From positions 870,001 to 902,000 of the forward strand of contig CP006913.1 in assembly GCA_000503875.1 (NCBI GenBank): 32,000 nt of DNA, in the 5' to 3' direction. The DNA is from Candidatus Saccharimonadota bacterium (GTDB taxonomy: Bacteria; Patescibacteriota; Gracilibacteria; Absconditabacterales; Absconditicoccaceae). The notes under the pieces were generated by a model. The model was not told where the DNA came from. It worked only from the letters and a program-made list of their open reading frames with translations, and made no database searches. Position 1 is the first letter of the stretch. Every line of letters starts with the position of its first letter. A program made the translations under genes and the position numbers. Below are positions 1 to 32,000 of the stretch, one piece after another.

Positions 1-660
1 AAAGGGGAAATTCACTATTTACACTATAAATTTATAAAAAAAATGAACCAAGAAGAACTCCTCAAAAAGTATGAAGACATTATCAAAGAAGAAATTAATA
101 TCAAAGAAATTACAGCTTTGGACAGCAGTATCAAAGTTAAAAAAATATTTAAACCCCTAGGAAATCAACTTTCTGCAAAATTTGGAAAAGATACAGGAAA
201 AATTATTCAATTCGGAAAAATGGGAAATTTGAAACAAGGAGAAAACAATCAGATTGTTGTTTTTGATGATGCTTGAAACGAACGAACACTTGAAAATTCG
301 GATTATGAAATTGCTTACGAAGGATTAGAATGAGACAACATCGCGATCGATAACGAAATCATCGCAAAGCTCGATTTAGAAATTACTCCAGATCTTGCCA
401 GAGAATGAGTCGCTCGCGAAATATCTAGATTTCTCAATCAAATGAGAAAAGAAGCGAAATATAATGTTGACGATAAGGTACATCTTGCCTACCAAACCGA
501 TAGTAAATATTTGATGGAAGTAATGTCAGAATTCTGAGAATTTTTACAAGATGAAGCGCTTGTTAAAGAAATATCTCACAACACTAGAAAACCAGCAGGT
601 GATATTGTCGCAGAATTCACTTCTGACGAACAAATGATGATGATCGCTTTGAAAAGATAG
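1..660 (+). CDS. ileS: Isoleucyl-tRNA synthetase, C-terminal fragment (5' end lies upstream of the window)
   Basis: Frame 1 is open from base 1. Four in-frame TGA are read as Gly. The tail ...DLEITPDLAREGVAREISRFLNQMRKEAKYNVDDKVHLAY... matches the conserved IleRS C-terminal region. TAG stop at 658-660. Confidence 0.75.
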
Positions 661-690
661 GATGATTACTTGAAAAGATAATTAAATTGA

Positions 691-834
691 GCAATAAAAA
701 GAACAAACAAAAAAAGAAAATATCAACAAATCAGCATCATCATGAGCCAAAACAGGAATTCAATTATAATGAGACGCTAATTCTAAATAAAATATTGCTT
801 TGATATTTGATGTATGTTGTTTGTTTTTTATTGC
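691..834. repeat. Long-range inverted repeat in the ileS-recX spacer (gcaataaaaagaacaaacaa / ttgtttgttttttattgc)
   Basis: 691-710 and 817-834 are reverse complements apart from a 2-nt bulge, and enclose about 106 nt. No ORF explains it. Confidence 0.3.
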
Positions 835-869
835 GAAACAATGACGACTTTATGATCTTAAATTAAATA

Positions 870-1310
870 ATGGCCCAACAAACTTGTCTAGATTATGCAC
901 TTCATTATATTTCTCGCTATCCAAAAACCGAAAGCGAACTCAAAATTAAACTTATGCAAAAAGGTTATTTTTCCAACGATATCGAAAAAGCAATGAATAT
1001 TCTCAAAGAAAAAAAATTTCTTAGCGATGAATTGTTTGTAGAAAGTTATGTAAGAAGCGAACTTATGAACAAAGGTAAACCGCCTATCGCAATTATCAAA
1101 AAGCTTCAAGAAAAATGAGCAGATAAACACCTTATTATGAAAATCATCAAACAAAATGAAGAAGACGTAAATAGCGGCGTAAGAGAAAGAATCAAAAAAG
1201 AAATCGCAAGCTACAAAAAAAGAGGCGAAGAATGATTCGATATTATTCAAAAACTTATGCGCAAAGGATACAGATTATGAGACATCAAAGATGTTATCAA
1301 CAACAAATAG
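870..1310 (+). CDS. recX: RecX-like regulatory protein
   Basis: ATG 870, TAG 1308-1310, 146 codons with 3 in-frame TGA. Repeated helical modules ([60 protein letters not shown]) are typical of RecX. Confidence 0.65.
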
Positions 1311-1342
1311 ATTCTGATTTTATTTATTATAGACAAGCTATC

Positions 1343-2734
1343 ATGAAAGCTACTCCTATCAGCAAATTGTATGCAGATCACAAGTCATTACTCAATACAT
1401 CAATCAATCTCAATGGATGGGTAAGAACAATCAGAGATTCCAAAACATTTGGATTTATTGAACTTAATGATGGATCATACCTCAAAAATATACAAATCGT
1501 TTTTGAAGATAAATTAGATAATTTCGATGCAATTTGCCACCTTGGAGTAGGAAGCGCAATTTCTGTAGAAGGAACTCTCGTTGCTTCACAAGGAGGAAAA
1601 CAAGTTTTTGAAATTCAAGCAAGCAAAGTAACTATCGTAGGAACTTCTCTTCCAGAATATCCTCTTCAAAAGAAAAGACATGGATTCGAATACCTCAGAG
1701 AAATTGCTCATCTTAGACCAAGATCAAATACCTTTTCTGCCGTGTTTAGAGTAAGAAATTTACTTTCATTCGCGATTCATAAATTCTTCCAAGAACAAGG
1801 ATTTATGCGAACACATACACCAATTCTTACAGGAAGCGACTGTGAAGGCGCTGGAGAAATGTTTAGAGTATCTACTCTTGATATGATGAATCCTCCAAAA
1901 ACTGAAGACGGGAAAATAGATTATTCCAAGGATTTCTTTGGGAAAGAAGCATCTTTGACAGTAAGCTGACAACTAAACGGAGAAACATTTGCTTGTGCTT
2001 TCTGAAAAATTTATACTTTCGGACCTACGTTTAGAGCTGAGAATTCAAATACCACAAGGCACTTATCAGAATTCTGGATGATAGAACCAGAAGTTGCTTT
2101 CGCAAATTTACAAGACAATATGGATCTTGCTGAGGGGTTGATAAAATACGTTTTCAAATACGTATTAGAGAATGCCCCTGAAGAAATAGATTTCTTCACC
2201 CAGTTTATCAACCCAGAAATCAAAGACAGAGTAACTAAATTGGTAAATTCAGATTTTGCAAGAATAACCTATACACAAGCTATTGATCTTCTCCAAAAAT
2301 CAGGACAAAAATTTGAATATCCAGTTTCTCGAGGAACAGAACTTCAAACAGAACACGAAAGATATCTTTCAGAAAAAGTATACAACGGACCAGTATTCGT
2401 AACTGATTATCCAAAAGAATTTAAAGCATTCTATATGAGACTGAGTGATGACAAAAAAACGGTTGCCGCTATGGATCTTTTGGTTCCAGGAGTCGGAGAA
2501 ATGATAGGAGGAAGCCAAAGAGAAGAAAGACTCGAAATCCTTGAAGAAAGAATGAAAGAAGTAGGGCTCAATCCAGAAGAATATTCTCGATATCTTGATC
2601 TGAGAAGATACGGAACAAATCCACATGCAGGATTTGGAGTAGGTTTTGAAAGATTAGTAATGTACATAACTGGTATGGAAAATATCCGCGACGTTATCCC
2701 ATTTCCAAGATGTCCAAAAACATTGGAATTTTAA
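1343..2734 (+). CDS. asnS: Asparaginyl-tRNA synthetase
   Basis: ATG 1343 ([10 protein letters not shown]), TAA 2732-2734. Two ORF-track fragments in one frame are joined through TGA at 1967 and 2003. Class II motifs are present: [41 protein letters not shown] 1967 is the Gly of LTVSGQLNGE. CGA 2588 is the Trp of W-YLDLRRYG. Confidence 0.95.
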
Positions 2735-3274: not shown

Positions 3275-4996
3275 ATGTCTACCCTCAAAAAACTTCTCAG
3301 CCCAGTCAAAGAAATGAAAGGTCGTTATTTTCTACTAATTTTAAGCTCGATATATTTTGGAGCTTTACGACCTATAAGTGCCTTAATTACAAGTAAAATA
3401 ATAAAATGATTTGAAGCAAAAGATGTAGAATACTTCAAATTGTATCTCTTAATTTTTTTATGAATAATTCTTTTCAATTATGGAACAAACTATTTTATCA
3501 GGACATTTAGAAGAGTAACTGCAAGAATTTTCGTAGAAAAACTTTACAAAAAATATATGCAAAAATACCTCAAAGCAGATAACAATCAGATTGAAATCCT
3601 AGGAACAGGACAAGCAAATTCCATCATCTCAAATGGATGTGAAAACCGAAGAATGCTGGTTATGGAAAATATATCAGGAAGCTTACTTAGAGTTGTTGTT
3701 GGTATGGTTGTTTCTATGATATTATTCATAACAAATTTGTGATTAGGTATGTCTTTGATAGCAGCTTGAATTTTTATTATTGTAATAATAATTAGCGTAA
3801 TATGAAATAAACTTTTCAAAGAAGTAAGAGAAAATAAAAGAGATATAAGCATCAAAATGAATAGATCACTAATCAAAATAATTATGTCAAAATTTGAAGT
3901 TTTACAAAACAACAAAATTTCCAAAGAAATACAGACAATAACAAATTTTATCAAAAAAATTATATTTCGAGATAAAAAAGAAAGTAAATGATATATAATA
4001 GCTAGTGACCTACCAAGATTTATAATAGATTTAGTTAAAGTCTGAATTTTGGCACGATATGGAATACAAATTATTGAATGAAAAGCGGGATATGCAGAAT
4101 TTACATTGATATGGATGTTATTAAATCAGATTTGATGATCTTTGTTTGAAATAAACGAATTTATGTTAAATTATCATTGATTAATTGTTTATGTAGAAAA
4201 ATTACGAAAAACATTTGATGATATACCTGCCATAAAATGATATGAAACAGGGAAAATATTCAGATTCAAACAATGAAATATTGAGTTTAAAAATATGTCT
4301 TTCAATTATGGAGAAAAAAATATTTTTGAAAATTTTTCTTTGACTATCACATGAGGACAAAAAATAGCTTTTGTTGGAGAAAGTTGATCTGGTAAGACAA
4401 CTTTGATAAAACTAATATCATGATATATTCATCCAACAAAATGAAAAATAACAATAGATAATCAAAATTTACAAGAAACCTCACTAAAAAGTTATTACCA
4501 TAAAATATGATATCTCACTCAAGATCCAAATGTTTTTGATTGAACTATTTTGGATAATCTTCTTTATGGAACCAAAAAAAAAGTAAGTAAAAACGAAATC
4601 CAAACAGCAATCAAACTCTCCAAATGTGATTTTATTTCTCAATTCAAAGATTGACTCGAAACCCAGATTTGAGAAAAATGAGTTAGATTAAGTGGAGGTC
4701 AAAAGCAAAGACTCGCTATCGCAAAACTTTTTCTCAAAAACCCACACATTATATTTTTGGATGAGCCAACTTCTGCTTTAGATAGTATGTCAGAAGAACA
4801 AATTACACAGGCATTCAACAATCTTTTCAAAAATAGAACTGTTATCGTAGCAGCTCATAGACTTCAAACAGTAAAAAGTGCAGATATTATATATGTTTTT
4901 GATAAATGAAAAATCGTAGAACAAGGAACACATCCAGAACTTCTCAAAAAGAAAGGAAAATATTATAAAATGATCGAATTACAATCTGGATTCTAA
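3275..4996 (+). CDS. ABC exporter, fused permease/ATPase (MsbA/ABCB-like)
   Basis: ATG 3275, TAA 4994-4996, 573 codons with about 23 in-frame TGA. The N-terminal half is hydrophobic. The NBD has Walker A GES(TGA)SGKTT, signature LSGGQKQR, Walker [13 protein letters not shown] and H-loop AAHRL. Confidence 0.9.
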
Positions 4997-5928: not shown

Positions 5929-6699
5929 TTATAATCAGCCAAGTTTCTGATTGGAAAGAGCAATTCTCTTGCTATCAAAATCATTACTTGCTAAAAATCA
6001 TAAGGAAATAGATTTGTTGCTGGGCATAAGAGAAATCTCTTTTACATCGTCTATTTTGCCACCATAACCATCAACACCAACCATAATCGGAGTTCTTCCG
6101 GAAGGACTAATATGAATAGATTGCGGTTTCAGTAAATGATAATTAAATGGTTTAGTCGCAAGTCACATAAGTCACCACAAATCACTTTGCATGGGTAAAA
6201 TAGGTCATCAATTTCCCAACCGATATCCCGAACTTCCAAGCGAAGTAGAAAGGATTAATCCCGTCCCAAGAATATGTTTATCAAACGATTCTCCATGAAG
6301 ATCAAAGGAAAAATAATCCAAAATATTTCCCCCAATGACCACATCGTTGATCGCATACAAAATATGACGAGTTGCCTCTTGGGTTACGACTTCTATCTGC
6401 ATAGGATGGACTTTAACAATATCCAATTCTTCAAAGGTTTTGGGCAATGATTTTTCTTGAAGCGTATTGAGCAAAAATCACAAAGTTCCGCAATTAATTC
6501 CAAAAAAAAGTTTCCCTTCATCAAAATGTTTTTTCATCGCATCAAGCATAAAGCCATCTCCTCAAGCCACTAAAAAAGCATTAGCCTTTTTTTTATCAAA
6601 GGTAATATTCTGATATAATCACGCTTCGATATCTTTTTGCAGATCGATTGCTTTTGGTCTTTTGGTATCCAGAACTGGATAATAGAGAAGTTTTTTCAT
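5929..6699 (-). CDS. nadK: NAD kinase
   Basis: ATG at complement 6697-6699, TAA at complement 5929-5931, 256 codons, 9 TGA. Motifs VA(TGA)GDGFML (GGDG), NCGTL(TGA)FL (NxGxLGFL) and STSLGSSGY..GN(TGA)(TGA)PI. Confidence 0.85.
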
Positions 6700-8373: not shown

Positions 8374-8412
8374 AAATAAATAATTGTATTTGTTACAATA
8401 ACTAGAAGTTAA
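8374..8412 (-). promoter_or_regulatory. nadE promoter with embedded ATTGTA-N5-TACAAT palindrome (candidate NrtR operator)
   Basis: On the minus strand: -35 TTAACT, 18-nt spacer, -10 TACAAT. The perfect palindrome lies at 8383-8399. 34 of 35 nt are identical to 12838-12872 upstream of pncA. Confidence 0.6.
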
Positions 8413-8496: not shown

Positions 8497-8534
8497 TCAA
8501 TTTCAAGAGAAAATGTATTTTTTACAATAAGAAA
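8497..8534 (-). promoter_or_regulatory. Conserved intergenic module, copy 1 (TCAATTTCAAGAGAA plus AATGTA-N5-TACAAT box)
   Basis: About 35 nt alignable with 13271-13310 and 18161-18199. The box at 8512-8528 has 1 mismatch to the palindrome. It lies upstream of the nadE promoter. Confidence 0.45.
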
Positions 8535-8587: not shown

Positions 8588-9448
8588 TTATTTCGGAATA
8601 ATTAAAAGCTTATCCTGCGGCAAAATCCATTCCGTATTGTTGGCATAAACTTTTTTGAAAGTTTCTACCTCATTATACATATGAAATAGATCCTTACTTT
8701 TGGCATAAGCTTTATTTAGCATAGCAAGACGCGTACTATCAGCACTACCCTTTATAGCTTCTGCATTTTTTCTTGCTGTTGCAACAATATCGTCAGCACG
8801 AAAATTTGCATGAGAAACAATAGAGTCTTTTAATTTCTGCCCTTCAGCAAGATAACCATCTGTTATTTTTTGACGATCAGCAATCATATCACTAAATACC
8901 GCTTTTTTATTTTCATCAGGTAATTCAACACGATTAAATGACAAAAATTTTATTGAGATATCAATATCATCCAAACCATGATTTGATGATGATTTAATAG
9001 TATCAAGCAAACCCTGACGATTATTTGTTACAATATCCTCAAAAATATTTTCACCAAGAATTGCAGCTATATCCGAACTGATATGGTCATCAATTCTATG
9101 ATTTGCTTTATTCATATCAACAACCTTCGTAAAGAAGGTTTTGGGGTTATCTATCTTGAATAAACAAAAATAATCAACAAGAAGTTTCTTTTTTGTCTTC
9201 TCTTGAAGTGTCATTTCTCTTGCATTATAAAGAAGAAGGCGCTTGTCTACTTTAATCACACGCTCCCAAGGATATTTTGTTTTTAATCCAGATTCGGTAT
9301 AATCTCTTTTTGGCTTACCAAATAAGAATGCCGAAGCTTGTTCCCCTTCTTTGATTATAAATAAAGAAGAATTAGCAAGAATAAAAATAAATATTGCTAT
9401 AATAAACAATATTATATTGGGCTTTGAATTCTGAAATATTGTTTTCAT
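8588..9448 (-). CDS. hflC: SPFH/band-7 protein HflC
   Basis: Intact 286-codon ORF with an N-terminal TM segment followed by an SPFH domain. It is adjacent to hflK with a 1-nt spacer. No TGA codons. Confidence 0.75.
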   Translation of the reverse strand: MKTIFQNSKPNIILFIIAIFIFILANSSLFIIKEGEQASAFLFGKPKRDYTESGLKTKYPWERVIKVDKRLLLYNAREMTLQEKTKKKLLVDYFCLFKIDNPKTFFTKVVDMNKANHRIDDHISSDIAAILGENIFEDIVTNNRQGLLDTIKSSSNHGLDDIDISIKFLSFNRVELPDENKKAVFSDMIADRQKITDGYLAEGQKLKDSIVSHANFRADDIVATARKNAEAIKGSADSTRLAMLNKAYAKSKDLFHMYNEVETFKKVYANNTEWILPQDKLLIIPK

Positions 9449-9449
9449 A

Positions 9450-10448
9450 TTATTGAAAGTTTTTTAGATTTAACAATGATTTATCATTAACAACTGTTTT
9501 TTTTGCAGAAGGCATAACCTCTTGCATTGCCTCAAACCATAATTTTTGTTTGGTAGTAATAGGGTCTTTTTTATATTCCATATAAACACCCATAAAACGA
9601 GAAACCTCACCTTCGGCAGCATTTACCTGTTGTGTAAAATAAGATCTCGCTTCATTAATTATAGTTTGAGCAGTTCCTTCAGCTTTTGGAATCACACTAT
9701 TAACATGACCTATAGCTTCATTATACATTTTTTCTTTTTGTTTGATTGCATCCATAACCGCATCATAAGCTGTTTGAACGGCTTTATCGGGCAATGTACA
9801 ATCTTGTAATTTCACTTCATTAATAGTAACCTTGATTCCAATAAAATCACAGTACTCTTGTAAAAGTTTCTTATTCCTTTCCTGAATTTCATTTTTCTCG
9901 GTTGTGAGAATTGCATCAATAGGTGTTTTACCAACAATCAATCTCATCGAACCTTGAGAAAGATTATCAAGAACAGCTTGAGGATTTTTCACTTGATAAA
10001 GCCAATTATAAGTATCCTGTATTGTATATTGAATAATCCAATACACAGAAGCCAAATGACCCCCTTTTGTAAGCATAACAGCCTCTTCGGGAACCTCAAC
10101 ATATTCAACAGGATTCGAATTTTCAACAGTTCTAAAACCAAGTTCCCAACGATAACGAACTTCCGTTCCAACTTTTCTAACTTTCGAAATAATTGGCATT
10201 TTGAAGTATAAACCACCAGGACCAACCTCATGAGAAAACTTTCCAAAATATTCTACAGAGCCTTTTTCGGTTTTATCAAGAACAAACCAAGAACCGAAAA
10301 TCAAATTAAAACCGATAATAAAGACAAAAACAATCAATAACCAATTAAAAGGCAAAAATGTAAATTTATTAAGTCTCACCCCTTTATCTCCATCGCGATC
10401 TTCAATAAAATCAAGATCGAAACCGAGGAATTTCAAAAATCTTTTCAT
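9450..10448 (-). CDS. hflK: SPFH/band-7 protein HflK
   Basis: Intact 332-codon ORF with a TM segment followed by an SPFH domain (VLDKTEKGSVEYFGKF..., coiled C-terminal part). No TGA codons. Confidence 0.75.
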   Translation of the reverse strand: MKRFLKFLGFDLDFIEDRDGDKGVRLNKFTFLPFNWLLIVFVFIIGFNLIFGSWFVLDKTEKGSVEYFGKFSHEVGPGGLYFKMPIISKVRKVGTEVRYRWELGFRTVENSNPVEYVEVPEEAVMLTKGGHLASVYWIIQYTIQDTYNWLYQVKNPQAVLDNLSQGSMRLIVGKTPIDAILTTEKNEIQERNKKLLQEYCDFIGIKVTINEVKLQDCTLPDKAVQTAYDAVMDAIKQKEKMYNEAIGHVNSVIPKAEGTAQTIINEARSYFTQQVNAAEGEVSRFMGVYMEYKKDPITTKQKLWFEAMQEVMPSAKKTVVNDKSLLNLKNFQ

Positions 10449-12837: not shown

Positions 12838-12876
12838 AAATAAATAATTGTATTTCTTACAATAACTAGAAGGCAA
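12838..12876 (-). promoter_or_regulatory. pncA-pncB promoter with embedded ATTGTA-N5-TACAAT palindrome (candidate NrtR operator)
   Basis: On the minus strand: -35 TTGCCT, 18-nt spacer, -10 TACAAT. The perfect palindrome lies at 12847-12863. It is near-identical to the nadE promoter and sits at the same distance (27 nt) from the ATG. Confidence 0.6.
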
Positions 12877-12882
12877 AAAAAA

Positions 12883-13281
12883 TTAATCAGGAATAGAAAA
12901 CTTTATAGTAGTAGTTCCCTCATAATTATCACCATAACTTGGAAAATCAGAACTAACTTTAATATTTGTATATCCCAAGGCCTTTAATAATCAGCTAATA
13001 TCTTTATCCTTATCGGTACAAATATCTGATTTCAAAACGATTGAGATATCCTTTTCATAAGCAGCTACTGTTTCACGAATTTTTGCATCAAGAGCATCTC
13101 TTGTTTTTTCACCAACCTTGTGTTTTAACGCTTCCAATCTTTCACTAGCTGACATATTTTTCAGCATCTCCGATGATTCTTTTGCTGTTAACATAGAGAG
13201 AAGAGTAATGAATAAAAGAATTTTATTATCTTTTTGTTTACCCTGGTATTTGTATATTATACAATTTCTATCAAATTGCAA
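12883..13281 (-). CDS. Hypothetical small protein (start uncertain: TTG 13281 or ATG 13194)
   Basis: Open frame with 1 TGA, TAA at complement 12883-12885. The central part is helical and charged (ERLEALKHKVGEKTRDALDAKIRETVAAYEKD). No domain was recognised. Confidence 0.4.
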
Positions 13282-13310
13282 GAGAATATTGTATATTTTA
13301 CAATAAGAAA
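13271..13310 (-). promoter_or_regulatory. Conserved intergenic module, copy 2 (TCAAATTGCAAGAGAA plus perfect ATTGTA-N5-TACAAT box)
   Basis: Perfect palindrome at 13288-13304. Alignable with 8497-8534 and 18161-18199. Confidence 0.5.
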
Positions 13311-13381: not shown

Positions 13382-14170
13382 TTATCCACCAAAGCCTCCA
13401 AGATTGGTTTGACTATGGTAAGCAGCGCTTTGACTAGCACGTACAGCACTCTGACTAAATATCTGAAATGCTTTACGTATTTCACTTGGATTAGATTGAG
13501 CTGTTAATATCCAGCGATCTGAGATTCCCATATCACCAAATACTTTTCTAAAATCACAGTTCCCATTATCAAATCCCATAGCGGCGATAATATGATCTTC
13601 ATTCTTCAACATGTCAGTGACGATTTTTTTAACATCATCAGATGTACTTGTACGAGAATGACAATCTTCACCGTCAGTCATAATGAGCGTAATTGTACGT
13701 ACCTGAATCCCATTGTTTTTAAAATCCTGCGTTTTAGCGATAACAGTAGCGAGAAGCTTAGCTGTTTCATCAAATAAAGGAGTACCTCCATTTGGATCAT
13801 AATTAGCAGGATCCATTTTTGGAACAACTGAAAGGGGTGTATAAGGATACAACACTGTTCCATTCAGATACCGGTTTAAAACTTCTATATTATCTTGTTG
13901 TTTGCTATCAGATAATGCTTTGATAAGCATATTGTGTCCATCTCGAATAGGTTGAGCATTGCTAGCAAATCTGATTGATCCAGAATCATCAACCAAAATA
14001 TTCAACAAAATAACTTCACTGGATTTCACATTATCAATTGGGACTCCAAGTCCTTCTTGTATAATAGCTCCAATATCTGGGATTTTTGTAAGAGCTGTTA
14101 ATGAGCCTTGACTCAAATCACCATCTTCGTGGGCGTTTTGCAACAAACCCAAATTAGCTGTATTTGACAT
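13382..14170 (-). CDS. von Willebrand factor A (vWA) protein with MIDAS motif, TerY-like
   Basis: ATG at complement 14168-14170, preceded by GGAGGA with a 7-nt spacer. TAA at 13382-13384, 262 codons. MIDAS elements VDDSGS, GGTPL and MTDGED. Confidence 0.85.
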   Translation of the reverse strand: MSNTANLGLLQNAHEDGDLSQGSLTALTKIPDIGAIIQEGLGVPIDNVKSSEVILLNILVDDSGSIRFASNAQPIRDGHNMLIKALSDSKQQDNIEVLNRYLNGTVLYPYTPLSVVPKMDPANYDPNGGTPLFDETAKLLATVIAKTQDFKNNGIQVRTITLIMTDGEDCHSRTSTSDDVKKIVTDMLKNEDHIIAAMGFDNGNCDFRKVFGDMGISDRWILTAQSNPSEIRKAFQIFSQSAVRASQSAAYHSQTNLGGFGG

Positions 14171-14197
14171 AATTTTGTCCTCCAATTTTTTTTGTTT

Positions 14198-18160: not shown

Positions 18161-18199
18161 TCAATTGCAAGAGAAAATGTAAAACAAACAATAAGTAAA
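18161..18199 (-). promoter_or_regulatory. Conserved intergenic module, copy 3, in the PP2C / radical SAM divergent region
   Basis: TCAATTGCAAGAGAA followed by AATGTA-N5-AACAAT (18176-18192, 2 mismatches to the palindrome). It has the same orientation and layout as copies 1 and 2. Confidence 0.4.
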
Positions 18200-18272
18200 T
18201 TTATATATACAACAAAATTTGATTATTTAACAATAGTTAAGTACATTTATTCACAGATAACATTAAAAAAAC

Positions 18273-18308
18273 ATATGTATTGACATTTTATATAAAATAC
18301 ATATTATA
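18273..18308 (+). promoter_or_regulatory. Radical SAM gene promoter overlapped by a 9-bp inverted repeat
   Basis: -35 TTGACA at 18280-18285, 16-nt spacer, -10 TATTAT at 18302-18307. The inverted repeat ATATGTATT-N14-AATACATAT (18273-18281 / 18296-18304) spans both elements. Confidence 0.45.
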
Positions 18309-18346
18309 TAAAAAATAAAACAAAAAAATAACCAAATTTTACAAAT

Positions 18347-19270
18347 ATGGAAATGCAAAGTATTAGTGTCGTCGTACCAGGTGGTTGTCCAAACAGGTGT
18401 AAATGCTGTGTATCAAAATTACATACCGATGGTGAAAACGTATATAGAAATCAAATTGAAAAAAATTATCAATTTGAAGACCTATATCAAAACGATTATT
18501 ATGATGCCATGAGTTTCGCCAGAGATAATGGCTGTAATACTATGATGTACACTGGCGACGGAGAACCTTTAATGAACAAAGGATTCATAAGAAAGGTAGT
18601 TGAAATAAATAAACAATTAAATCAACCTTTCAGATGGAATGAAATCCAGACAACCGGCGTATTCCTGACTAAGAAATCAGAGGAAAATGGAGGTGAGACA
18701 AACTTACGTTGGTTAAGAAATTATGTAAGAATAAAAACCATTTCGTTAAGTTTATTCAACATCTTTGATTCAAACAAAAATGCAGAATATTCTCAACCAC
18801 AATCAAAAGCTGCTTTCGTAGATATTGAAAAAACATGTAAAGCTATTAAAAAATATGACTTTACATTACGATTATCTCTAAATATGGTTGATTTTTACAA
18901 TGATGTAACCCCAGAAGAAATCTTCCAAAGAGCTAGAGAGTTAGGTGCAAATCAGATTACCTTCCGCGTACTTTATAATATTGATAATCCAACAAACAAA
19001 GAAGAACAAGAAATCTCAGATTGGATAAGAGAACATAAAGTAAAAGATGAGAAAATTCAAGAAATCAACGACTATATCAAAAAACACGGTCGTATTCTCG
19101 AACAACTCCCCTTTGGTGCCTATCGTTACAGCTTACATGGAATGTCCGTTGTAGTCGATGACGATTGTATGAGCACAAAAGAAGGAACAAAAGAAGTTAA
19201 ATATTTAGTACTCCGTCCCAATTGTAAAGTATATACCAAATGGGATGACGAAGGCTCTATCATCTTCTAA
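18347..19270 (+). CDS. Radical SAM enzyme (307 aa, no SPASM-type extra Cys cluster seen)
   Basis: Intact ORF. CX3CX2C cluster GGCPNRCKCC near the N-terminus and a GGE-like SAM motif YTGDGEPL. No TGA codons. Confidence 0.85.
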   Translation: MEMQSISVVVPGGCPNRCKCCVSKLHTDGENVYRNQIEKNYQFEDLYQNDYYDAMSFARDNGCNTMMYTGDGEPLMNKGFIRKVVEINKQLNQPFRWNEIQTTGVFLTKKSEENGGETNLRWLRNYVRIKTISLSLFNIFDSNKNAEYSQPQSKAAFVDIEKTCKAIKKYDFTLRLSLNMVDFYNDVTPEEIFQRARELGANQITFRVLYNIDNPTNKEEQEISDWIREHKVKDEKIQEINDYIKKHGRILEQLPFGAYRYSLHGMSVVVDDDCMSTKEGTKEVKYLVLRPNCKVYTKWDDEGSIIF

Positions 19271-19273
19271 CAC

Positions 19274-19303
19274 AAAAAAGTCGCAGAATCCTGCGACTTT
19301 TTT
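19274..19303. terminator. Strong bidirectional terminator between the radical SAM and DCD-like genes
   Basis: aaaaaagtcgcag / ctgcgactttttt, a 13-bp stem with loop aatc. Confidence 0.85.
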
Positions 19304-19352
19304 CAATTACACTATTTAATATTTTTTGATTCAATAATATATTAATTTTTAT

Positions 19353-21365: not shown

Positions 21366-23147
21366 ATGAAACAAGCGCTATATGCATGATCCTTTGACCC
21401 TATAACTCACGGACACAAAGATATCACAGAAAGAGCCGCAAAACATTTCGACAAAGTAACTGTTGGTATTGGTGTTAATCCAGATAAAGAAGGAAGATAT
21501 CTTTTTTCCTTACAAGAAAGACTCCATCTTACGCGTGAAGTCCTCAAAGATATTTTAAATGTGGATGTTTTGGCATTTAGAGGCATGCTTTCTGATTTTG
21601 CCTATGAAAACAAATATCCAGTAGTCGTAAGAGGAATCAGAAATGGGAAAGATTTTGAAATGGAACAAGAACTGCAATGGGCTATTGAAAGGCAAAAACT
21701 TGGAATAGAAACATTTTTTCTTAATGCAAAACAATCAGTTTCAGATGTTAGTTCTAGTGCCGTAAAATCAGTACTCAAAGAACAAGGAGATATTAAACCC
21801 TATGCCCCATTAATCATTAAACAAGCAATGGAAGGAAGACTTTTAGGTCAATATATAGCAGGAGTTACTTGAAGTGTAGGATCTGGAAAATCATTCACTA
21901 CAGATACATTTATGAAACTCTGCGAAAAAAATGGAATCACCTGACACAATCTTGATTTAGATAAAATAGGTCACGAAATCCAATGACCACTCCAAGAACC
22001 AATTTATCAAGAAACTAGACAAAGAATAATCCAAACATTTGGAGATGATGTGGCAAATGAAGATGGGACTATAAACAGAGAAAATCTTGGTCCAAAGGTA
22101 TTTTGAGATGCTAAAAAATTAGAAGAACTCAATGCCATCATGCATGATCCTATGAGAGTGAGAACAAGAAGACTAATGTACAACCAAAAAGGATTATTCT
22201 TCTATAACGCAGCACTCATTGCAGAAAATAACGCATCAAATATTGTAAACAATAATATAGTTTTGGTTAATGTAGATCCAGCAATTCAAGCAAAAAGATT
22301 GGAAGAAAGATGAGCATCTCCAGAAGATGTCACAAGAAGACTAAAAAGCCAATTTACCACAGAATATAAAAAAAGTCTATTACTAGAAAGTATAAAAAAA
22401 GATGAGCATGGACTTATTATTGATCTTCAAACACCCTATATCAATCAAAGTGAAAAAATCGCTTTCAACGCATTGTTAGCACAAATAGATACGTTTGGAG
22501 AACTTCGTTTTTCTGGATTACTCAACAGATTATGAGTCAAAGAAAATCATGCCAAACTTTTTGCTGAACTAAGAAATATGTATGATAGGCCCATCTCTCC
22601 CGATGCAAATCGAGATGAAATAACTCAAAAAATAAAAGGAAATTATCACAAACGATTACACATTATAGACTCCTCAAATGAATTTTATAAAATCAGACAT
22701 CTTATCAAAAATCCTGATATTATTGAATGTGCAATATTATTTCACGATATTATTTACGATCCAACATCAAAAACCAACGAGGAAGATAGTGCAAACTTTG
22801 CAGAAAATATATTAATCAAACGATGACTTCCAAAAGATTTTATAGAAGAGGTAAAAAGATATATTCTTCTAACCAAGCACGACAAAATTCCAGATACTGA
22901 AGATGGTAAATATCTAGTGGATATCGATACGTCTATCTTATGAAGAGAACGAAAAAAATATGAACAATATGCCAAAGATATCAGAAGAGAATATTATATG
23001 TATTCAGACAATAAGTATAACGCAGGAAGAAAAAATGTATTAAAGTTTTTCCTAGAAAAAGAAAATATATTCCAAACAGAGCATTTTCAAAACAAGTATA
23101 AAGACCAGGCAAAAACAAATATCGAACAAGAAATTTCTTCATTATAA
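21366..23147 (+). CDS. coaD-coaE: Tri-domain fusion: phosphopantetheine adenylyltransferase (CoaD), dephospho-CoA kinase (CoaE) and a COG4339-like HD phosphohydrolase
   Basis: ATG 21366, TAA 23145-23147, 593 codons, 9 TGA, single frame. CoaD motif YA(TGA)SFDPITHGH. CoaE P-loop IAGVT(TGA)SVGSGKS follows directly after the CoaD C-terminus. The C-terminal domain has YHKRLH...AILFHDIIYDP...NEEDSANFA...LLTKHD...DIDTSIL(TGA)RE. Confidence 0.85.
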
Positions 23148-23158: not shown

Positions 23159-23175
23159 ATTGTATATATAACAAA
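23159..23175 (+). promoter_or_regulatory. Degenerate ATTGTA-N5-AACAAA box upstream of nrtR (possible autoregulation)
   Basis: The left arm is perfect and the right arm matches 4 of 6 positions. It lies 61 nt upstream of the nrtR ATG. Confidence 0.3.
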
Positions 23176-23235: not shown

Positions 23236-23895
23236 ATGAGCAAACAAAACATTCTTATCACGGTAGACAACATTGTCTTCAGTATCGTAGATCAACAACT
23301 CCAAGTTCTTTTGATTAAAAGACTTATAGAACCGTTCAAGGATATGCGAGCCTTGCCAGGATGATTCGTTTTGGAAAACGAAAATTTAGAAAAAGCTGCT
23401 CACAGAGAACTCGAAGAAGAAACTAGCGTAAAAAATATTTATCTAGAACAACTCTATACTTTTTCTGAGGTAAATAGAGACCCAAGAGGAAGAGTTATTT
23501 CTTGTGCATATATGGCACTTGTTGCAAGAGAAAACATCATTATCAATCCAGGATCTGATGCGGCAGAAACACAATTTTTTGCGGTAAATAAATTACCAAA
23601 ATTAGCCTTCGATCACAAAAAAGTAATAGAATATGCCCTTCAAAGATTAAAGTGGAAAATGGAATATACTAATATCGCTCAATATATTTTGCCAAGAAAA
23701 TTTACGCTTTCAGAATTACAAAAAGTGTATGAAACGATACTCAACCAAGCTATCGATGTAAGAAACTTTAGAAAAAAGATTGAAAAACTGTGACTTGTAA
23801 AAGAAACAGGAGAAAAAGAAATCGGCGTACAATACAGACCCGCAAAATTATATGAATTTAGTACAAGAAAATTGGAAATTGTAGACGTATTATAA
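23236..23895 (+). CDS. nrtR: Nudix-related transcriptional regulator of NAD metabolism (NrtR family)
   Basis: ATG 23236, TAA 23893-23895, 219 codons, 2 TGA. The N-terminal Nudix-like domain has M(CGA)ALPG(TGA)FV...AAHRELEEETS. The C-terminal winged-helix-like part has FTLSELQKVYETILNQAIDVRNFRKKI. It lies near NAD genes that carry palindromic boxes. Confidence 0.8.
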
Positions 23896-23957: not shown

Positions 23958-24650
23958 TTAAACAATTTTTTCTACTTTCCAAACCACATAATCAGTATCC
24001 TGACCAAATGGGTTGTGCATAAATTGTTTCTTGTAATGGATCATTATCTGCTTTCCGGACAACAAAGATGTCATCAATGACCTATAAATATTTTCATCGG
24101 TAACAGACATAGACATAAAGTCATTTCCAATATTACTTAACTGGAACATAACCTCGTAAGATTTGGTAATAGTTCCACGTTTAGAAAGTTTCACAACTCT
24201 ACCAATACGGAACCCTTCAGACTTAAGTCCATCAATACCTTGTTCTTGATAAGGCAGAATAGCAATAGACGTATCCAAGGGCGAAATCTCTAACGGTTCA
24301 TATTCATTTTCCCAATTCAGTGGTCCAATTCTATATTGACGATATTTAATCACCACATATTTATTAGCATATTGGGAAATATTAGAAACCAATGCCGATT
24401 TTGTCGAAAGAGAGAATTGCCAAGGATTTATCAATACACTATCTTTCATATCAAAATAATATGAACTCTCCTTCCCAAGAAGAAGATCTCCCTCACAGGA
24501 TTTAAAAATGAGACCCGTAGAAGAGAATTTATTGAGCTTTCCCATTCGATATCCTTCAGAATAAGTGCCATAGCCCATATCCTGAGTAAAATACATTAAA
24601 ACAAAGAAAGCAACAATAAGGATACCAGCAATTATTAAAAGCTTTTTCAT
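23958..24650 (-). CDS. Membrane-anchored hypothetical protein with an internal tandem duplication
   Basis: Intact 230-codon ORF with an N-terminal TM/signal segment (KKLLIIAGILIVAFFVLMYF). It contains two homologous halves: SEGYRMGKLNKFSSTGLIFKS...VVIKYRQ and SEGFRIGRVVKLSKRGTITKS...IMIHYKKQ. No TGA codons. Confidence 0.6.
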   Translation of the reverse strand: MKKLLIIAGILIVAFFVLMYFTQDMGYGTYSEGYRMGKLNKFSSTGLIFKSCEGDLLLGKESSYYFDMKDSVLINPWQFSLSTKSALVSNISQYANKYVVIKYRQYRIGPLNWENEYEPLEISPLDTSIAILPYQEQGIDGLKSEGFRIGRVVKLSKRGTITKSYEVMFQLSNIGNDFMSMSVTDENIYRSLMTSLLSGKQIMIHYKKQFMHNPFGQDTDYVVWKVEKIV

Positions 24651-25009: not shown

Positions 25010-27283
25010 ATGTTCTTCCTTGTAACTAAACACAGCACTGCCAAAGAAAATTTTAGCCGAGAAAAAATCGAAAAAACATTTCAAAGAGCGACACTATGAT
25101 TGGAAGATCTTTGTAATTTTGATGACATCAAAAAAGAACTAGAAAAATATTTGATGGAAAATATAGCCACCAAAGATATCACAAAGCTCCTTATCAAAGC
25201 AGTAATAAATTTGATATCAATCGAAAATACCCATTGGCAACTTGTTGCAGGAAGATTACTTACCATGGATCTCTACAAACAAGCAATGAGAAATAGAAAT
25301 ATACCCATCGAAAATATCTATTCGAATCAAAATTTTAGCCAACACTTCCAACAATATATTCAACAAAAAAAATATTATCAGAATTTTATGGAATATTATA
25401 GCCCAGAAGACATACAAAAAGCTGGTTCTTATCTAAAGAAAGAATACGATTTCGCATACGGATATACAACCGCACTTATGATCAAAAAACGTTATTTACT
25501 GAATCCAAACAACGATATTCAGGAATTACCGCAAGAAATGTATATGGCAATAGCCCTTTTCCTCGCTATTCCAGAGAGCCCAGAAACCAGACTAGAAACT
25601 GCTTTCGCCATCTATGATGCCTGTGCTACCCAGAAAATATCCTTGCCAACGCCAACCTTAATGAACGCAAGAACCAATTTTCACCAGCTTTCCAGTTGTT
25701 TCAAACTCAATGTGGATGATGATCTCAGATCTATCTACCACAACATCGAAAACATGGCACAAATCTCCAAATTTGGAGGTGGAATCTGAGTATATCTCGG
25801 AAATATCAGGTCCAAGGGATCCGATATCAGAGGGGTCAGGGGCGCTTCAGGATGAATTCTCCCTTGGACAAAAGTCATCAACGATACAGCAATTGCGGTG
25901 AACCAACTTGGTGCAAGAGCTGGGGCAATTTCAGTGACGCTCGATATCTGGCACAGAGATATCCTTGATTTCCTAGATATGCAAACAGAAACAGGAGATA
26001 TTAGAAGAAAATCTTTTGATATATTTCCTGCGGTCAGCGTACCCGATCTCTTTATGCAGAGAGTCATGGATAACAAAGATCGAACCCTTTTTGATCCCAA
26101 AGAGATAAACGATAAAACAGGCAAAAAGCTTCAAAACCTCTTTCAAGAAGACTTCACAACATTCTATGAACAACTAGAACAAGACCCAAATATCACGCTC
26201 AAACAAAGCATTCCCGCCAAAGATCTTTTCAAAAAGTTTCTCAAATCTGTGGTAGAAACTGGAATGCCGTATACTTTTTTCCGCGACACGGTCAACAGAA
26301 CAAATCCCAACAATCACGCAGGAAACATTTATTCTAGCCAACTCTGCACCGAAATAGCGCAAAATACTTCTCCTTCTGAGTTTATTGAAGAGACAGAAGA
26401 AAATGGAAATATCAATATCAAATACAAACCAGGCGATTCTGTGGTGTGTAATCTCGCTTCTATAAACGTTGCTAAAGTATATACTCCAGAAGAGATCAAT
26501 AAGATTGTACCTATTGCCATGCGCATTCTCGACAATGTTATTACGCTAAACTTCTTCCCAATCAAGGAAGCAGAAATCACCGCGAAGAAATATAGAAGTG
26601 TTGGACTGGGTTTTCTAGGATTGGCTGAATATCTAGCGGTAAACAATATGGTCTATGACTCAGCTTTCGCAAGAACCCATATCGATCAACTCTTCGAACA
26701 ATACGCCTACACAACCATCAAAGCATCCAACGAATTAGCCCAAGAAAGAGGCGCATACGAATTATTTAAAGGAAGCCAACGAGAAAAAGGAATTCTTTTT
26801 GGGAGAGACGAACAACGATATAGCCAACATTCTACGCTCAAAGATAAACGGTCCGATCTTATCAAAAATATCAAAACACATGGAATCAGATTTGCTTATC
26901 ATCTTTCCCCTGCGCCAAACACATCAACCTCATTAGTCGTAGGAACAACTGCTGGATTACTCCCTATCTACAAGAAATACTTTGTAGAAACCAACGGAGT
27001 CGCCCCTAGTGTAAACGTAGCACCAAATCTAAACAAAGAAAATACACGATTCTACAAAGAATATGTACATATGAAAATGCCAGAAGTCATCGATATGATC
27101 TCTACTATCCAAAAACGAGTAGACCAATCAATCAGCTTTGAATGGATAGTAAATCCAGCCGAAACGACACCATCAGAACTTTACGCTTACTATGTCAAAT
27201 CACGACAACAAGGCATCAAAACAATTTATTATGTTAGAAGCATGAGCCTAGACGTCAAAGAATGCAGCAGCTGTAGCGGATAA
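25010..27283 (+). CDS. nrdA: Ribonucleotide reductase class Ia alpha subunit with N-terminal ATP-cone
   Basis: ATG 25010, TAA 27281-27283, 757 codons. Fragments in one frame are joined by 3 TGA. Motifs SQLCTEI, SPAPNTSTS and C-terminal CSSCSG. CGA/CGG fall on conserved Trp positions (QK-W-VDQSIS, KS-W-QQGIKTIYY, DK-W-SDLIKNIKTHG). Confidence 0.95.
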
Positions 27284-29483: not shown

Positions 29484-29495
29484 CTACTATAGTTT

Positions 29496-29801
29496 TTAAA
29501 AAAACAAATACTTCGGAGTAAAAGACAGCAAGAGAATAGCTGCTAGAACACCCATCAAAAATAAGGATCCAATCGTCCATAAGGAATACGCCGGTAATGT
29601 TTTATAAGTGTAAAAACCAATACAACAAAACACAATTAAATAGACGAGATTCCAAACGAAACCGAAAGATTCCACATAAGAAGCGACAAAAGGGCGCAAA
29701 ACAAAGAAAGCAGAAGCACAAAAAACAATAAACACTATCGTAGCTATGAAATACACAACGACGTTTTCTCTAGTGTTAATGAGAATAGTTGATTGTTTCA
29801 T
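29496..29801 (-). CDS. Small hypothetical integral membrane protein (101 aa)
   Basis: Intact ORF with three strongly hydrophobic segments and no recognisable domain. Confidence 0.5.
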   Translation of the reverse strand: MKQSTILINTRENVVVYFIATIVFIVFCASAFFVLRPFVASYVESFGFVWNLVYLIVFCCIGFYTYKTLPAYSLWTIGSLFLMGVLAAILLLSFTPKYLFF

Positions 29802-29905
29802 AAGACAAATCCAGACAGCTGCTGCTGTTTTCCACGCCTCTTCGTGGGATCCAAAAAAAACTGGTAAACATATAATAAATATTTATACAATAAAGTCAAT
29901 ACATC

Positions 29906-30934
29906 ATGCAAGCCAACCAAATATTCAATCCATCAGGGAACGATAATCCTCAAGAAAGAACAATTATCAAAGGAAATACGACAGGTCTTTTCAATCTCAA
30001 TAGCACCAAATATGGTTGGGCAAAATCGCTCTACACCATTATGATTGGAAACTTTCGAGTACCTGAAAAAGTGTCCGGACTCAACGAAGATAGTATTCAA
30101 TACAAGGAACTCACCGACAATGAACGCAGAGCCTACGATGGAATTCTTTCTTTTCTTATTTTTCTCGATAGTATCCAAACCGTCAATCTCCCTAATTTTT
30201 CGGATTACATCACAGCTCCAGAAGTCAGTCTTCTTCTAGCAATCCAAACCTATCAAGAAGCTATTCATTCCCAAAGCTATGCAACTATTTTGGAAAGCGT
30301 TGTGGAATCATCCAAAAGAGACGACATCTATTATTTCCGAAGAGACAATCCAATTCTTCTAGAAAGAAACCAATACATCGGACAAATCTATCAAAATTTT
30401 ATGGACAATCCCAATGATGATAATTTTTTCAAAGGTTTAATCTGAAATTTTTTATTGGAAGGCTTATATTTTTACAATGGATTTGCTTTTTTCGATACCC
30501 TTGCTGATCATCAAAAAATGAAAGCTACCGATAGAATGATCAATTATATTCGTAGAGATGAACTTACTCATGTAACCATGTTTACCTATATTATCAAAGA
30601 AATTCAAAAAGAATTTCCTCAAATATTTGATAAAAAAGTAGTATACGATATGTTTCAAAATGCGGTAGAACAAGAGATCAAACGATCACAATTCATTTTG
30701 GGAAACAACATAATCTGAATCAACCATCAGACTACAGAAATTTATACCAAATGGTTAGCCAACAATAGATTGAGCCTAATTGGCCTCGAGCCCCTTTACC
30801 CAGACATCACCGAAAACCCCTACAAGCACCTCGAACGCCTCCAAGACAACAACTCAGAAAAATCTAATTTTTTTGAATCAACAGTAACTAATTATACACA
30901 ATCTAGTAGTATGAAAGGAAATCGAGATTTTTAA
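29906..30934 (+). CDS. nrdB: Ribonucleotide reductase class I beta subunit
   Basis: ATG 29906, TAA 30932-30934, 342 codons, 2 TGA. Di-iron ligand motifs YQEAIHSQSY and RDELTHV. NF(CGA)VPEKV has CGA at the conserved NFWxPEE Trp. Confidence 0.95.
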
Positions 30935-30977
30935 AAAACTATTAGCAATCAAAAATAAAAACTATATATTTTCAACC

Positions 30978-32000
30978 ATGAAACTCCTCAAACAAATCAA
31001 CAAAGCGCTCGCTTACGTGATAATCATTTTTATCAAAATCTACCAATTCACGCTCTCGCCAGATAAGAGCATATTTTTCTTATATCTCAGAGGAAGAGTC
31101 TGTGCGCATCATCCTCACTGCAGCCAATATAGCATCAATGTCCTCAAAAGATATGGATTTTGGCCAGGAATTTTCTATGCTTTTGACAGAGTTTTACATT
31201 GTACACCAAGCATGACCATCAATTACGATCCTGATCACTACAAAATAGTTTTCTTCTCATCAGCTCCTATTGGAGTACCTTTTTTGCAAGAATTAGCAAA
31301 AGACAAAAGATTTGAAGTTGTAGGGGTTGTTACTCAATGCGACAAACCGCAATGAAGAGGTATGGAAACCTGTGAAAATATTATCAAAACTGAAGCCAAA
31401 AAGATATTTCCAAATCAAAACGAAAATTTCATCAATACTCCAACCAAACTTAATCCAGAAAAATCGGAAGAAGGAAAAGAATTTCACAAGCGACTCACGT
31501 CAAAAGAGCCAGATTTCCTAGTTGTGATAGCCTACGGAAAGATCATCCCAGAAAATATTCTTGATATAGCTAAGATAGCCCCTATCAATGTCCATGGATC
31601 AATTCTCCCAAAATATCGCTGAGCATCTCCTATTCAGTCTGTTTTCCTCAATAGAGAGAAATCATCAGGGATAACTATCATGAAAATGGATAAAGGAATG
31701 GATACTGGAGATATGATCGACATCAAACAAACCAAACTCCACTTTGATCGAACTTGCAAAGATCTTATCGAACGAATGAAGTCAGAATGACCAGCATTCC
31801 TAAATGACACCGTTCGAAAATTCGGTAAAAAAGTCCTTGGACACAAAAAACAAGACGATGATAAAGCTACTTATTGTTCCAAAATAGAAAAAGAAAGCTG
31901 ATTAATCGACCCTTACAAGGATTCATTGGAAGAAATTTATAACAAATATCGCGCCTTCTTTCTTCGACCAAAAATTTATTTTATACATAATGGGAAAAGA
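30978..32000 (+). CDS. fmt: YidD-like membrane insertion efficiency factor fused in frame to methionyl-tRNA formyltransferase (3' end outside window)
   Basis: ATG 30978, with the frame open to the window end through at least 4 TGA. The N-terminal ~88 aa is YidD-like (IKIYQFTLSP...CAHHPHCSQYSINVLKRYGFWPGIFYAFDRVLHCTP). Fmt follows: KIVFFSSAPIGVPFL, VVTQCDKPQ(TGA)RG, VVIAYGKIIP, NVHGSILPKYR(TGA)ASPIQ. Confidence 0.8.

Follow-up and report, generated by a model that had tools for sequence, protein, structure and literature searches.

A chromosomal gene block with a standard-code signature in an Absconditabacteria-type genome predicted to read UGA as glycine and CGA/CGG as tryptophan

Introduction

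In genetic code 25, the SR1/Gracilibacteria code, UGA encodes glycine (Campbell 2013, Rinke 2013), and a proteomic validation of this reading (Hanke 2014) is cited in PMC6851277. For Absconditabacteria, Shulgina & Eddy 2021 (eLife, PMC8629427) predicted that CGA and CGG encode tryptophan, besides the use of UGA for glycine. Here we describe a stretch of 32,000 nucleotides (the window) from an Absconditabacteria-type genome and, within it, a five-gene block at positions 13382-19270 with the signature of the standard code. We consider it likely that the ordinary genes use UGA for glycine and CGA/CGG for tryptophan, and that the block has been inherited vertically under standard-code constraints.

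Absconditabacteria lack tRNA(ACG) and have a tRNA-Arg(GCG) for CGU/CGC, as well as tRNA(UCG) and tRNA(CCG) for CGA/CGG, the latter two reported for the clade with Trp-type identity (PMC8629427). The window sequence matches GenBank assembly GCA_003543185.1, contig DPJE01000005.1, which is 122,663 bp long, and is also present in an ENA assembly made independently from the same sediment metagenome. The source data of Figure 4 of PMC8629427 place GCA_003543185.1 under "Likely Absconditabacteria", with Codetta calls of Gly for UGA, Trp for CGA, and "?" for CGG. The "?" for CGG recurs in several sister assemblies, and some sisters have two tRNA(CCG) genes. The tRNA genes recorded for GCA_003543185.1, by presence only, are ACG 0, GCG 1, UCG 1, CCG 1, and CCA 1, and codon usage per 10,000 is 25.4 for CGA, 1.7 for CGG, and 56.3 for UGG. 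The same study notes that contaminating contigs can cause code artefacts; GCA_003543185.1 failed GTDB quality control and has 50% completeness. The Absconditabacteria CGA/CGG and UGA code was detected again with KACI (bioRxiv 10.64898/2026.04.02.715157), and later work takes the CGA/CGG reassignment as established. According to the literature, all BD1-5 genomes lack prfB.

The double reassignment is already published for this genome, and we confirm it here at the codon level. A preliminary description of the window had cited the inference of Shulgina and Eddy, correctly, as CGA/CGG=Trp is predicted there and the assembly itself is listed. It also offered the window as gene-level support; the window serves well as an illustration of the reassignment, and not as its first observation.

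Phages of these hosts are also relevant. Liu et al. 2023 (mBio, PMC10746230) describe code-11-compatible phages of Gracilibacteria/Absconditabacteria, in which TGA stops are backed by nearby TAA or TAG; the prophages were all fully recoded, and the study examined TGA alone. Standard-code phages are predicted for these hosts (PMC10746230). The discussion in that paper also covers stop-recoded phages whose early genes are in the standard code and whose late genes are recoded (Borges 2022, Ivanova 2014), and it gives a change of decoding state during the life cycle as the accepted explanation for such two-code phages.

A block with a standard-code signature

Window genes are labeled g1-g29, and L-numbers refer to related or flanking DNA loci. 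The block and the sites within it that bear on its code are as follows.

13382-19270, both strands: five-gene block with a standard-code signature (TGA never used as sense, Arg columns with CGA/CGG, TGG as the only Trp codon), found in 12 recoded genomes
13382-14170, minus strand: g14, vWA-like; no Pfam match, UniRef name VWFA-domain protein
14198-15223, minus strand: g15, nicotinamidase-like block member
15251-17134, minus strand: g16, protein kinase; Pkinase at 26.3 bits, below cutoff
17131-17991, minus strand: g17, PP2C; PP2C_2 at 62.8 bits, above cutoff
18347-19270, plus strand: g18, radical-SAM block member
13943-13945, minus strand: CGA at a near-invariant Arg of g14, PI-R-DGHN; at least 90% of 30 homologs have Arg here, and relatives have Arg codons (13) or CGA/CGG (2)
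13871-13873, minus strand: CGG at a conserved Arg/Lys of g14, N-R-YLNG; relatives have Arg codons (10), CGA/CGG (5), or Lys (1)
16385-16387, minus strand: CGA at a conserved Arg of the kinase g16; 42 of 50 diverse homologs have Arg here, and relatives have Arg codons (9) or CGA/CGG (4)
17938-17940, minus strand: CGA at an Arg position of the PP2C g17; relatives have Arg codons (9) or CGA/CGG (1)
17230-17232, minus strand: CGA at an Arg position of the PP2C g17; relatives have Arg codons (9), Val (3), or Lys (1)
17131-17134, minus strand: ATGA overlap of the TGA end of g17 and the ATG of g16; TTATGAAA in the window and in L059, TAA at this place in L060 and L062

The preliminary description had applied TGA=Gly and CGA/CGG=Trp to positions 1-32000. 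This reading holds for the ordinary genes and fails for the block, where CGA/CGG stand at conserved Arg positions and TGA is not used as a sense codon. Genes g14-g18 have one TGA (17131-17133) among 123 Gly codons, compared to about half of the Gly codons in g5 and g19. The GenBank table-11 call terminates g17 at this TGA, and there is a TAA 12 codons downstream. The vWA gene of L062 has a TGA directly after the conserved C-terminal GGFGG. All six conserved Trp columns of the kinase are TGG. In public table-11 gene calls four cassette genes are full length and every neighbor is shattered.

The window has 56 CGA/CGG codons. Twenty-five are positively supported as Trp, 23 because they exchange with TGG in relatives and two via solved structures. 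Another five occupy clear Arg positions (13943, 13871, 16385, 17938, and 17230, in g14, g16, and g17), and two others lean to Arg (14498 in g15 and 18869 in g18). The homologs that define the 13943-13945 column of g14 include cyanobacterial proteins with 57-60% identity. CGG=Trp, also proposed in the preliminary description, is supported at two window sites (NrdA 26849 and NadK 6220) and contradicted at 13871 in g14, an Arg site; the fourth CGG of the window, 19767 in g19, is unclassified.

Conservation and selection across recoded genomes

We collected block-region DNA from 11 other recoded genomes, via homolog searches and one metagenome scan, for a total of 12 genomes with the window. The gene order g22-g21-g20-g18-g17-g16-g15-g14-g13-g12-g11-g8-g7-g6 is identical in the 11 relatives. 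Pooled over the 12 genomes, the block contains no TGA against 1,289 GGN codons, and the flanks contain 363 TGA against 983 GGN. The ratio of TGG to CGA plus CGG is 219 to 113 in the block and 43 to 75 in the flanks. In alignment columns where CGA/CGG are mixed with other codons, the commonest partner in the block is Arg in 31 columns and Trp in none; in the flanks it is Arg in none and Trp in 13 (Fisher p = 2e-11). Trp columns have 211 TGG and no CGA/CGG in the block, versus 36 TGG and 45 CGA/CGG in the flanks.

Four standard-code outgroups with the same cassette give a similar picture. Relative to these, block CGA codons occur at 20 Arg-conserved columns and no Trp-conserved column, and CGG codons at 13 and none, respectively. 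The share of codons at Arg-conserved columns in the block is 32-33% for CGA/CGG, 41% for AGA, and 23% for CGT; in this respect CGA and CGG resemble AGA, AGG, and CGT.

Compared with its closest relative, L059, the window shows a synonymous divergence (dS) of 0.32 and a ratio of nonsynonymous to synonymous divergence (dN/dS) of 0.10 in the block, versus a dS of 0.38-0.39 and a dN/dS of 0.11 in the flanks. In deeper genome pairs, synonymous sites are saturated in block and flanks alike. Four of nine block CGA/CGG columns switch to AGA or CGC between the window and L059, and none to TGG. Different genomes have CGA/CGG at different Arg sites, and the closest pair is no exception, which indicates that turnover is ongoing. 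From these alignments, we conclude that the block evolves under standard-code constraints, is inherited vertically, and is under purifying selection in recoded genomes.

Codon use in the two-fold families is identical in block and flanks, and GC content is the same. The codon differences are limited to the recoded codons, Arg codons (CGT and CGC up, AGA down), and some A-ending four-fold codons. The identical two-fold codon use rules out an explanation of TGA avoidance by high expression. Codon context also does not work as a decoding rule, as no flanking position separates Trp-site from Arg-site CGA/CGG. We do not regard the block as a mobile element, since it lacks terminal repeats and mobile-element genes and has a fixed position in 12 genomes. 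It also does not correspond to a known defence system, with no PADLOC or NCBIfam family above threshold. A permissive Rfam scan for RNA genes in the block gave only sub-threshold hairpin matches. No close relative of the block was found in IMG/VR, where a profile search gave homologs with 50-59% identity on very large contigs.

Open reading frames of at least 200 codons in the recoded loci include 33 without TGA out of 254, and about half of these 33 are copies of the block. Other TGA-free genes encode an FMN glutamate-synthase-like protein (L019 1601-3217, L022 838-2481, and L023 7723-9333), an aldehyde dehydrogenase (L062 11498-13045 and L057 1-1134), and a PurM-like protein (L045 1449-2654). 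In the glutamate-synthase-like and aldehyde dehydrogenase families, CGA/CGG in one genome are opposite Arg in another. The standard-code signature may therefore extend beyond the block.

Codon meanings in the ordinary genes

The window has a G+C content of 33%. With TGA allowed as a sense codon, stop-to-stop frames of 100 codons or more hold twice as much coding sequence (16,211 instead of 8,215 codons), and 29 genes then tile the window. The in-frame totals in these genes are 98 TGA, 52 CGA, 4 CGG, and 59 TGG, with 243 AGA, 22 AGG, 50 CGT, and 25 CGC among the Arg codons. Genes end in TAA (22) or TAG (6); the PP2C g17, however, ends in TGA where orthologs have TAA. Eight genes have no in-frame TGA. 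Across the native genes the share of Gly codons that are TGA varies from about 6% (AsnRS, NadE, NAMPT, and NrdA) to about 50% (the ABC exporter g5 and g19). The preliminary description had estimated that the standard code breaks about 25 genes here. We count fewer, as table 11 breaks 20 and merely shortens one more.

The following sites illustrate the reassigned codons. Eight of them were cited in the preliminary description, and all eight are at the positions and in the motifs given there.

4385-4387, plus strand: TGA as Gly, the fourth residue of Walker A in the ABC exporter g5; GES-x-SGKT aligns with the Gly of ABCB1 GNSGCGKS
6562-6564, minus strand: TGA as Gly, the first Gly of GGDG in the NAD kinase g7; VA-x-GDGF, vvGGDGnml in solved NAD kinases
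1967-1969, plus strand: TGA as Gly in AsnRS g3; LTVS-x-QLNGE, Gly in 6pqh and 5zg8
30056-30058, plus strand: CGA as Trp in NrdB g28; NF-x-VPE, relatives have TGG (30) or CGA/CGG (10) and no other codons
28935-28937, plus strand: CGA as Trp in AhpC g27; relatives have TGG (7), CGA/CGG (9), or Phe (1)
2588-2590, plus strand: CGA as Trp in AsnRS g3; x-YLDLRRYG, Trp in three of the three solved AsnRS shown
23347-23349, plus strand: CGA as Trp in the NrtR-type Nudix regulator g22; x-ALPG, relatives have TGG (3), CGA/CGG (2), or Tyr (1)
26849-26851, plus strand: CGG as Trp in NrdA g24; DK-x-SDLIKNIKTHG, Trp in 7agj and yeast R1, relatives have TGG (39) or CGA (11)
6220-6222, minus strand: CGG as a clade-specific Trp in the NAD kinase g7; TGG in L058, CGA in L057, CGG in L056 and L060

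In GenBank proteins translated with table 25, the column at 6220-6222 contains only W or R. Many public protein entries of the clade are translated with table 4, which shows TGA as W at Gly positions, and the GenBank calls on this contig use table 11 and fragment the genes. Such inconsistent translation can mislead protein comparisons, so we rechecked protein W/R patterns on the DNA.

We aligned NrdA codon by codon across 51 loci with NrdA relatives from species-representative genomes. In 50 aligned genes, 373 of the 378 TGA codons of well-conserved columns are at Gly columns. Of the eight CGA/CGG codons in the window gene, six correspond to Trp in solved structures, one is at a hydrophobic ATP-cone position, one is at a variable position, and none is at an Arg. 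The relatives fall into three classes. Genes of the window clade (L003-L012 and L045; 72-88% identity) have 4-10 CGA each, and those in conserved columns are all at Trp and never at Arg. Three of these genes (L006, L009, and L011) have two to three CGG each at Trp columns, and TGA is at Gly columns. The second class, with 17 genomes (L013-L017, L028, L031, L034, L038, L040, L042-L044, L046, L047, L051, and L052), uses TGA for Gly, and CGA/CGG are wholly absent. This looks like a codon-disappearance stage, judging by these NrdA sequences. The third class, with 16 genomes, has no in-frame TGA and has CGA/CGG at Arg/Lys columns, as in the standard code. In the NrdA of L049, a single CGG stands in a Trp column and a single CGA in an Arg column.

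Other genes agree with NrdA, and the signal greatly exceeds chance. At the four NrdB sites with CGA, each genome of the two outgroup classes has TGG (13-14 of 13-14, and 11 of 11). Sites that exchange solely with TGG, CGA, or CGG make up four of four in NrdB, three of four in AhpC, two of two in Bcp, two of two in nitroreductase, and five of five in Fmt; the fourth AhpC site is in a hydrophobic column. The TGG sites of the window are, in turn, CGA or CGG in relatives. In AsnRS, two CGA align to Trp, and two TGA align to Gly or small residues. The TGA codons of the ABC exporter are on canonical glycines, and its CGA sites are uninformative, being in poorly conserved transmembrane segments. In the native genes tested, no CGA/CGG was found at a conserved Arg column. 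The preliminary description's further statements, that TGG still encodes Trp, that AGA, AGG, CGT, and CGC encode Arg, and that the organism belongs to an Absconditabacteria-type lineage within the candidate phyla radiation (CPR), are borne out, the codon meanings in the ordinary genes.

tRNA genes and release factor

In addition to the window, we examined about 9 kb beyond each of its ends (about 18 kb extra and about 50 kb of contig in total). The window contains neither a tRNA gene nor an Rfam family. A tRNA(GCG) gene on the same contig precedes window position 1 by about 4.5 kb (L054 4618-4691, minus strand), with A20 in the D-loop and A73. By its sequence, this tRNA has Arg identity elements and an anticodon predicted to read CGU/CGC and not CGA/CGG. 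A tRNA(UCA) in the relative L034 (16561-16639) has G1:C72, C2:G71, G3:C70, and U73, the full Gly identity set. Another relative has a normal tRNA-Trp(CCA) with A1:U72 and G73.

A palindrome shared with NAD genes

The motif TTGTA-N5-TACAA has nine matches in the window versus 2.2 expected, including sites at 8384-8398, 8513-8527, 12848-12862, 13250-13264, 13289-13303, 18139-18153, and 23160-23174. It is found upstream of nadE, the pncA-like g12, g13, and nrtR, and also in the promoter region of the block.

18139-18153, no strand assigned: palindrome TTGTACTATATACAA in the divergent g17/g18 promoter; overlaps the -10-like box of a minus-strand promoter-like site

The palindrome probably serves the NrtR homolog g22 as its operator. 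Its occurrence at both NAD genes and the block promoter suggests that the block is in the native NrtR regulon.

How the two gene sets may be decoded

In the ordinary genes, we predict that UGG still encodes Trp and that AGA, AGG, CGU, and CGC encode Arg. Arg decoding in the CGN box would be carried out by the tRNA-Arg(GCG) found 4.5 kb from the window; G34 pairs with U or C alone, so CGA and CGG would have no Arg reader. These two codons would instead be read by the tRNA(UCG) and tRNA(CCG) published as present in the assembly. UGA would be read by a tRNA-Gly(UCA), with release factor 2 (RF2) absent, as the literature and the tRNA of the relative suggest.

Several points weigh against this reading of the ordinary genes combined with vertical inheritance of the block. 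If Trp-type tRNAs are the sole readers of CGA/CGG, the block proteins have Trp at invariant Arg positions, and this clashes with a dN/dS of 0.1; the tRNA picture would then lack something, or else selection acts on the block in a context that we do not see. We know of no second decoding state in any bacterium. Genes for tRNA(UCG) and tRNA(CCG) were found neither in the window and the roughly 18 kb of flanking contig nor in 84 related loci, and no tRNA(UCA) or prfB gene was found in the roughly 50 kb of contig. The Trp identity of the CGA/CGG readers is predicted from the sequence-based rules of one paper, and our literature search found no proteomic test of CGA/CGG=Trp. Furthermore, the operator-like palindrome shared with native NAD genes argues that the block is expressed in this cell and not elsewhere.

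Our best guess, although we put it below even odds, is that the block matters in a cellular state in which CGA/CGG encode Arg and UGA does not encode Gly. This would be a conditional second decoding and not constant ambiguity. A second decoding context is also the class of explanation left over after the rivals considered below. We think it rather unlikely that the chromosome as a whole is written in two codes, with the signalling and NAD-linked block (UGA as stop, CGA/CGG as Arg) made correctly only in the second decoding state. The trigger could be, for example, a standard-code phage or imported prey components that replace the special tRNAs, and in this state only standard-code host genes would be translated faithfully. 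If true, the block would be a module for an infection or feeding state, with a safety catch built in.

Constant ambiguity is an improbable account of both gene sets. Here tRNA(UCG) and tRNA(CCG) would be charged by both ArgRS and TrpRS, or Arg-type and Trp-type tRNAs would coexist, so that every CGA/CGG gives mixed products and each gene relies on the reading that suits it. The nucleotides C35 and G36 of the tRNA are anticodon determinants for ArgRS and would be retained in UCG and CCG tRNAs. The presence of both readings in one genome fits this idea, as do the Codetta "?" for CGG here and in several sisters and the two tRNA(CCG) genes of some sisters. However, native enzymes have many CGA at invariant Trp positions (seven in NrdA and four in NrdB), and a sizeable Arg fraction would inactivate most enzyme molecules. 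In the block, CGA/CGG are no less common at Arg-conserved columns than AGA or CGT, and over a dS of 0.3 they swap freely with other Arg codons, which a mostly-Trp reading would forbid. There is also no crossover between the gene sets (31:0 versus 0:13).

We find it very improbable that the block was acquired recently from a standard-code donor and is not yet adapted, so that its CGA/CGG are misread as Trp and the TGA stop is read through. Fresh standard-code genes would look just like this at first, the Arg codon usage of the block differs from that of the flanks, and other TGA-free genes do occupy variable slots (e.g., HflK/C g9-g10, absent there in relatives). Against this, the block keeps its position across 12 genomes that share only 50-60% identity in their housekeeping proteins, and its dS is close to that of the flanks (0.32 versus 0.38) and saturated in deeper pairs. 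The CPR copies form their own group, with 65-93% identity, followed by a drop to about 60% (cyanobacteria). The two-fold codon families are already genome-like, and the turnover of Arg-site CGA/CGG is ongoing.

Still harder to sustain is the view that nothing was reassigned, with CGA/CGG encoding Arg everywhere and Trp sites fixed by site-specific RNA editing. In plant mitochondria, an apparent CGG=Trp proved to be C-to-U editing, and a site-specific process would allow Arg-type and Trp-type CGA/CGG in one genome. However, the Trp-site codons here are 88% CGA and not CGG. C-to-U editing of CGA gives UGA, which encodes Gly here, so two different edits would be needed to reach UGG. No sequence context separates Trp-site from Arg-site codons, and C-to-U editing of mRNA is, to our knowledge, not known in bacteria. 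The published inventory without an ACG tRNA and the Trp-type UCG and CCG tRNAs of the clade (PMC8629427) also count against editing. Finally, despite the GTDB quality failure, the 50% completeness, and the published contaminating-contig artefacts (PMC8629427), we give almost no weight to an assembly chimera between a recoded genome and a standard-code organism, as recoded genes are on both sides of the block, the block is in two independent assemblies of the sample and in 11 genomes of other studies in the same order, and its GC content and two-fold codon use equal those of the flanks.

Gene content and other features of the window

Based on Pfam, the window encodes an IleRS C-terminus, RecX, AsnRS (g3), a DUF1653 protein, and the ABC exporter (g5). 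An NAD cluster includes NMNAT-Nudix, NAD kinase (g7), glutamine-dependent NadE, NAMPT-like, and isochorismatase genes. Further matches are HflK/C-like proteins (g9 and g10), the kinase (g16), PP2C (g17), and the radical-SAM protein (g18), followed by a methyltransferase, a CoaD-CoaE-HD fusion (g21), and the NrtR-type Nudix regulator (g22). The remaining matches are NrdA (g24), NrdB (g28), nitroreductase, Bcp, AhpC (g27), and a YidD-Fmt fusion (g29). Both fusions are apparent ones: g29 (30978-32000) joins YidD and methionyl-tRNA formyltransferase in one frame, and g21 (21366-23147) joins CoaD, CoaE, and an HD domain.

The HflK/C-like pair g9 and g10 (8588-10448) is CGT-rich, with no TGA and no CGA/CGG, and reads the same in both codes; in relatives, other genes are found in its slot between nadE and NAMPT. 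Gene g23 (23958-24650) is TGA-free and has one unclassified CGA. A hairpin palindrome at 19243-19335, between the convergent ends of g18 and g19, gave sub-threshold STnc40 matches on each strand and probably acts as a bidirectional terminator. A phage-type integrase gene (L054 8274-9083) is located 50-860 bp before window position 1 and adjoins the IleRS gene; the GenBank table-11 call cuts it into two pieces.

Comparison with known systems and significance

The ordinary genes share with table 25 the in-frame TGA at conserved Gly, the TAA/TAG stops, and, in a relative, a tRNA(UCA) with Gly identity. They differ in that table 25 keeps CGA/CGG as Arg, so about 45 Trp codons of the window would be mistranslated with it; the TGA of the PP2C would be read through. 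The published Absconditabacteria code (PMC8629427) is closer: codons, meanings, and lineage are the same, GC is low and CGN codons are rare, tRNA(ACG) is missing, and a tRNA-Arg(GCG) is present. In that work each codon has one meaning per genome, whereas here there is a block in which CGA/CGG stand for Arg and sense TGA is avoided. A genome-wide majority call hides the block, and the block may contribute to the "?" for CGG. A standard-code block in 12 recoded genomes appears to be unreported, and papers on closed Gracilibacteria genomes and their metaproteomes make no mention of standard-code genes such as these.

Like the code-11-compatible phages (PMC10746230), the block has no in-frame TGA, and the TGA stop of g17 is followed by a TAA 12 codons on. 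Unlike these phages, it is chromosomal, fixed in 12 genomes, and without phage or mobile-element genes or terminal repeats. With CGA/CGG used for Arg, the label "compatible with both codes" also does not apply to it when the host reads these codons as Trp. The two-code phages resemble it in having two gene sets in one replicon with different codon meanings. In those phages, only stop codons are involved, and the parts of the switch (suppressor tRNA and release factor) are phage-encoded. The block is on a bacterial chromosome and involves a sense-to-sense codon, and none of the switch components were found in the DNA examined.

The vWA-type, PP2C, and kinase genes form a module of a kind found widely among bacteria; g14 has 1398 homologs and g16 has 3103. 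The TerY-P triad, reportedly described by Anantharaman, Iyer and Aravind in 2012, is said to consist of a vWA protein, a PP2C phosphatase, and a Ser/Thr kinase. The block similarly has adjacent vWA-type, PP2C, and kinase genes, although the kinase is below the Pfam cutoff and the vWA assignment is by UniRef name. It differs from the triad in its extra nicotinamidase-like gene, joined in some genomes by a radical-SAM gene, and in its NAD-salvage neighborhood.

What is new relative to all of these systems is a sense-codon reassignment that appears to be non-uniform within one genome, with a block that would have stayed readable only in the ancestral code through divergence that saturates synonymous sites. 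The finding is relevant to how sense codons acquire new meanings, whether by codon capture, an ambiguous intermediate, or conditional decoding, and on the idea of an altered code as a firewall against foreign genes. It also bears on the trust placed in genome-wide code callers and pipelines, as a table with CGA/CGG=Trp would mistranslate the block. The prediction is directly testable, since cultured Absconditabacteria co-cultures and metaproteomes exist.

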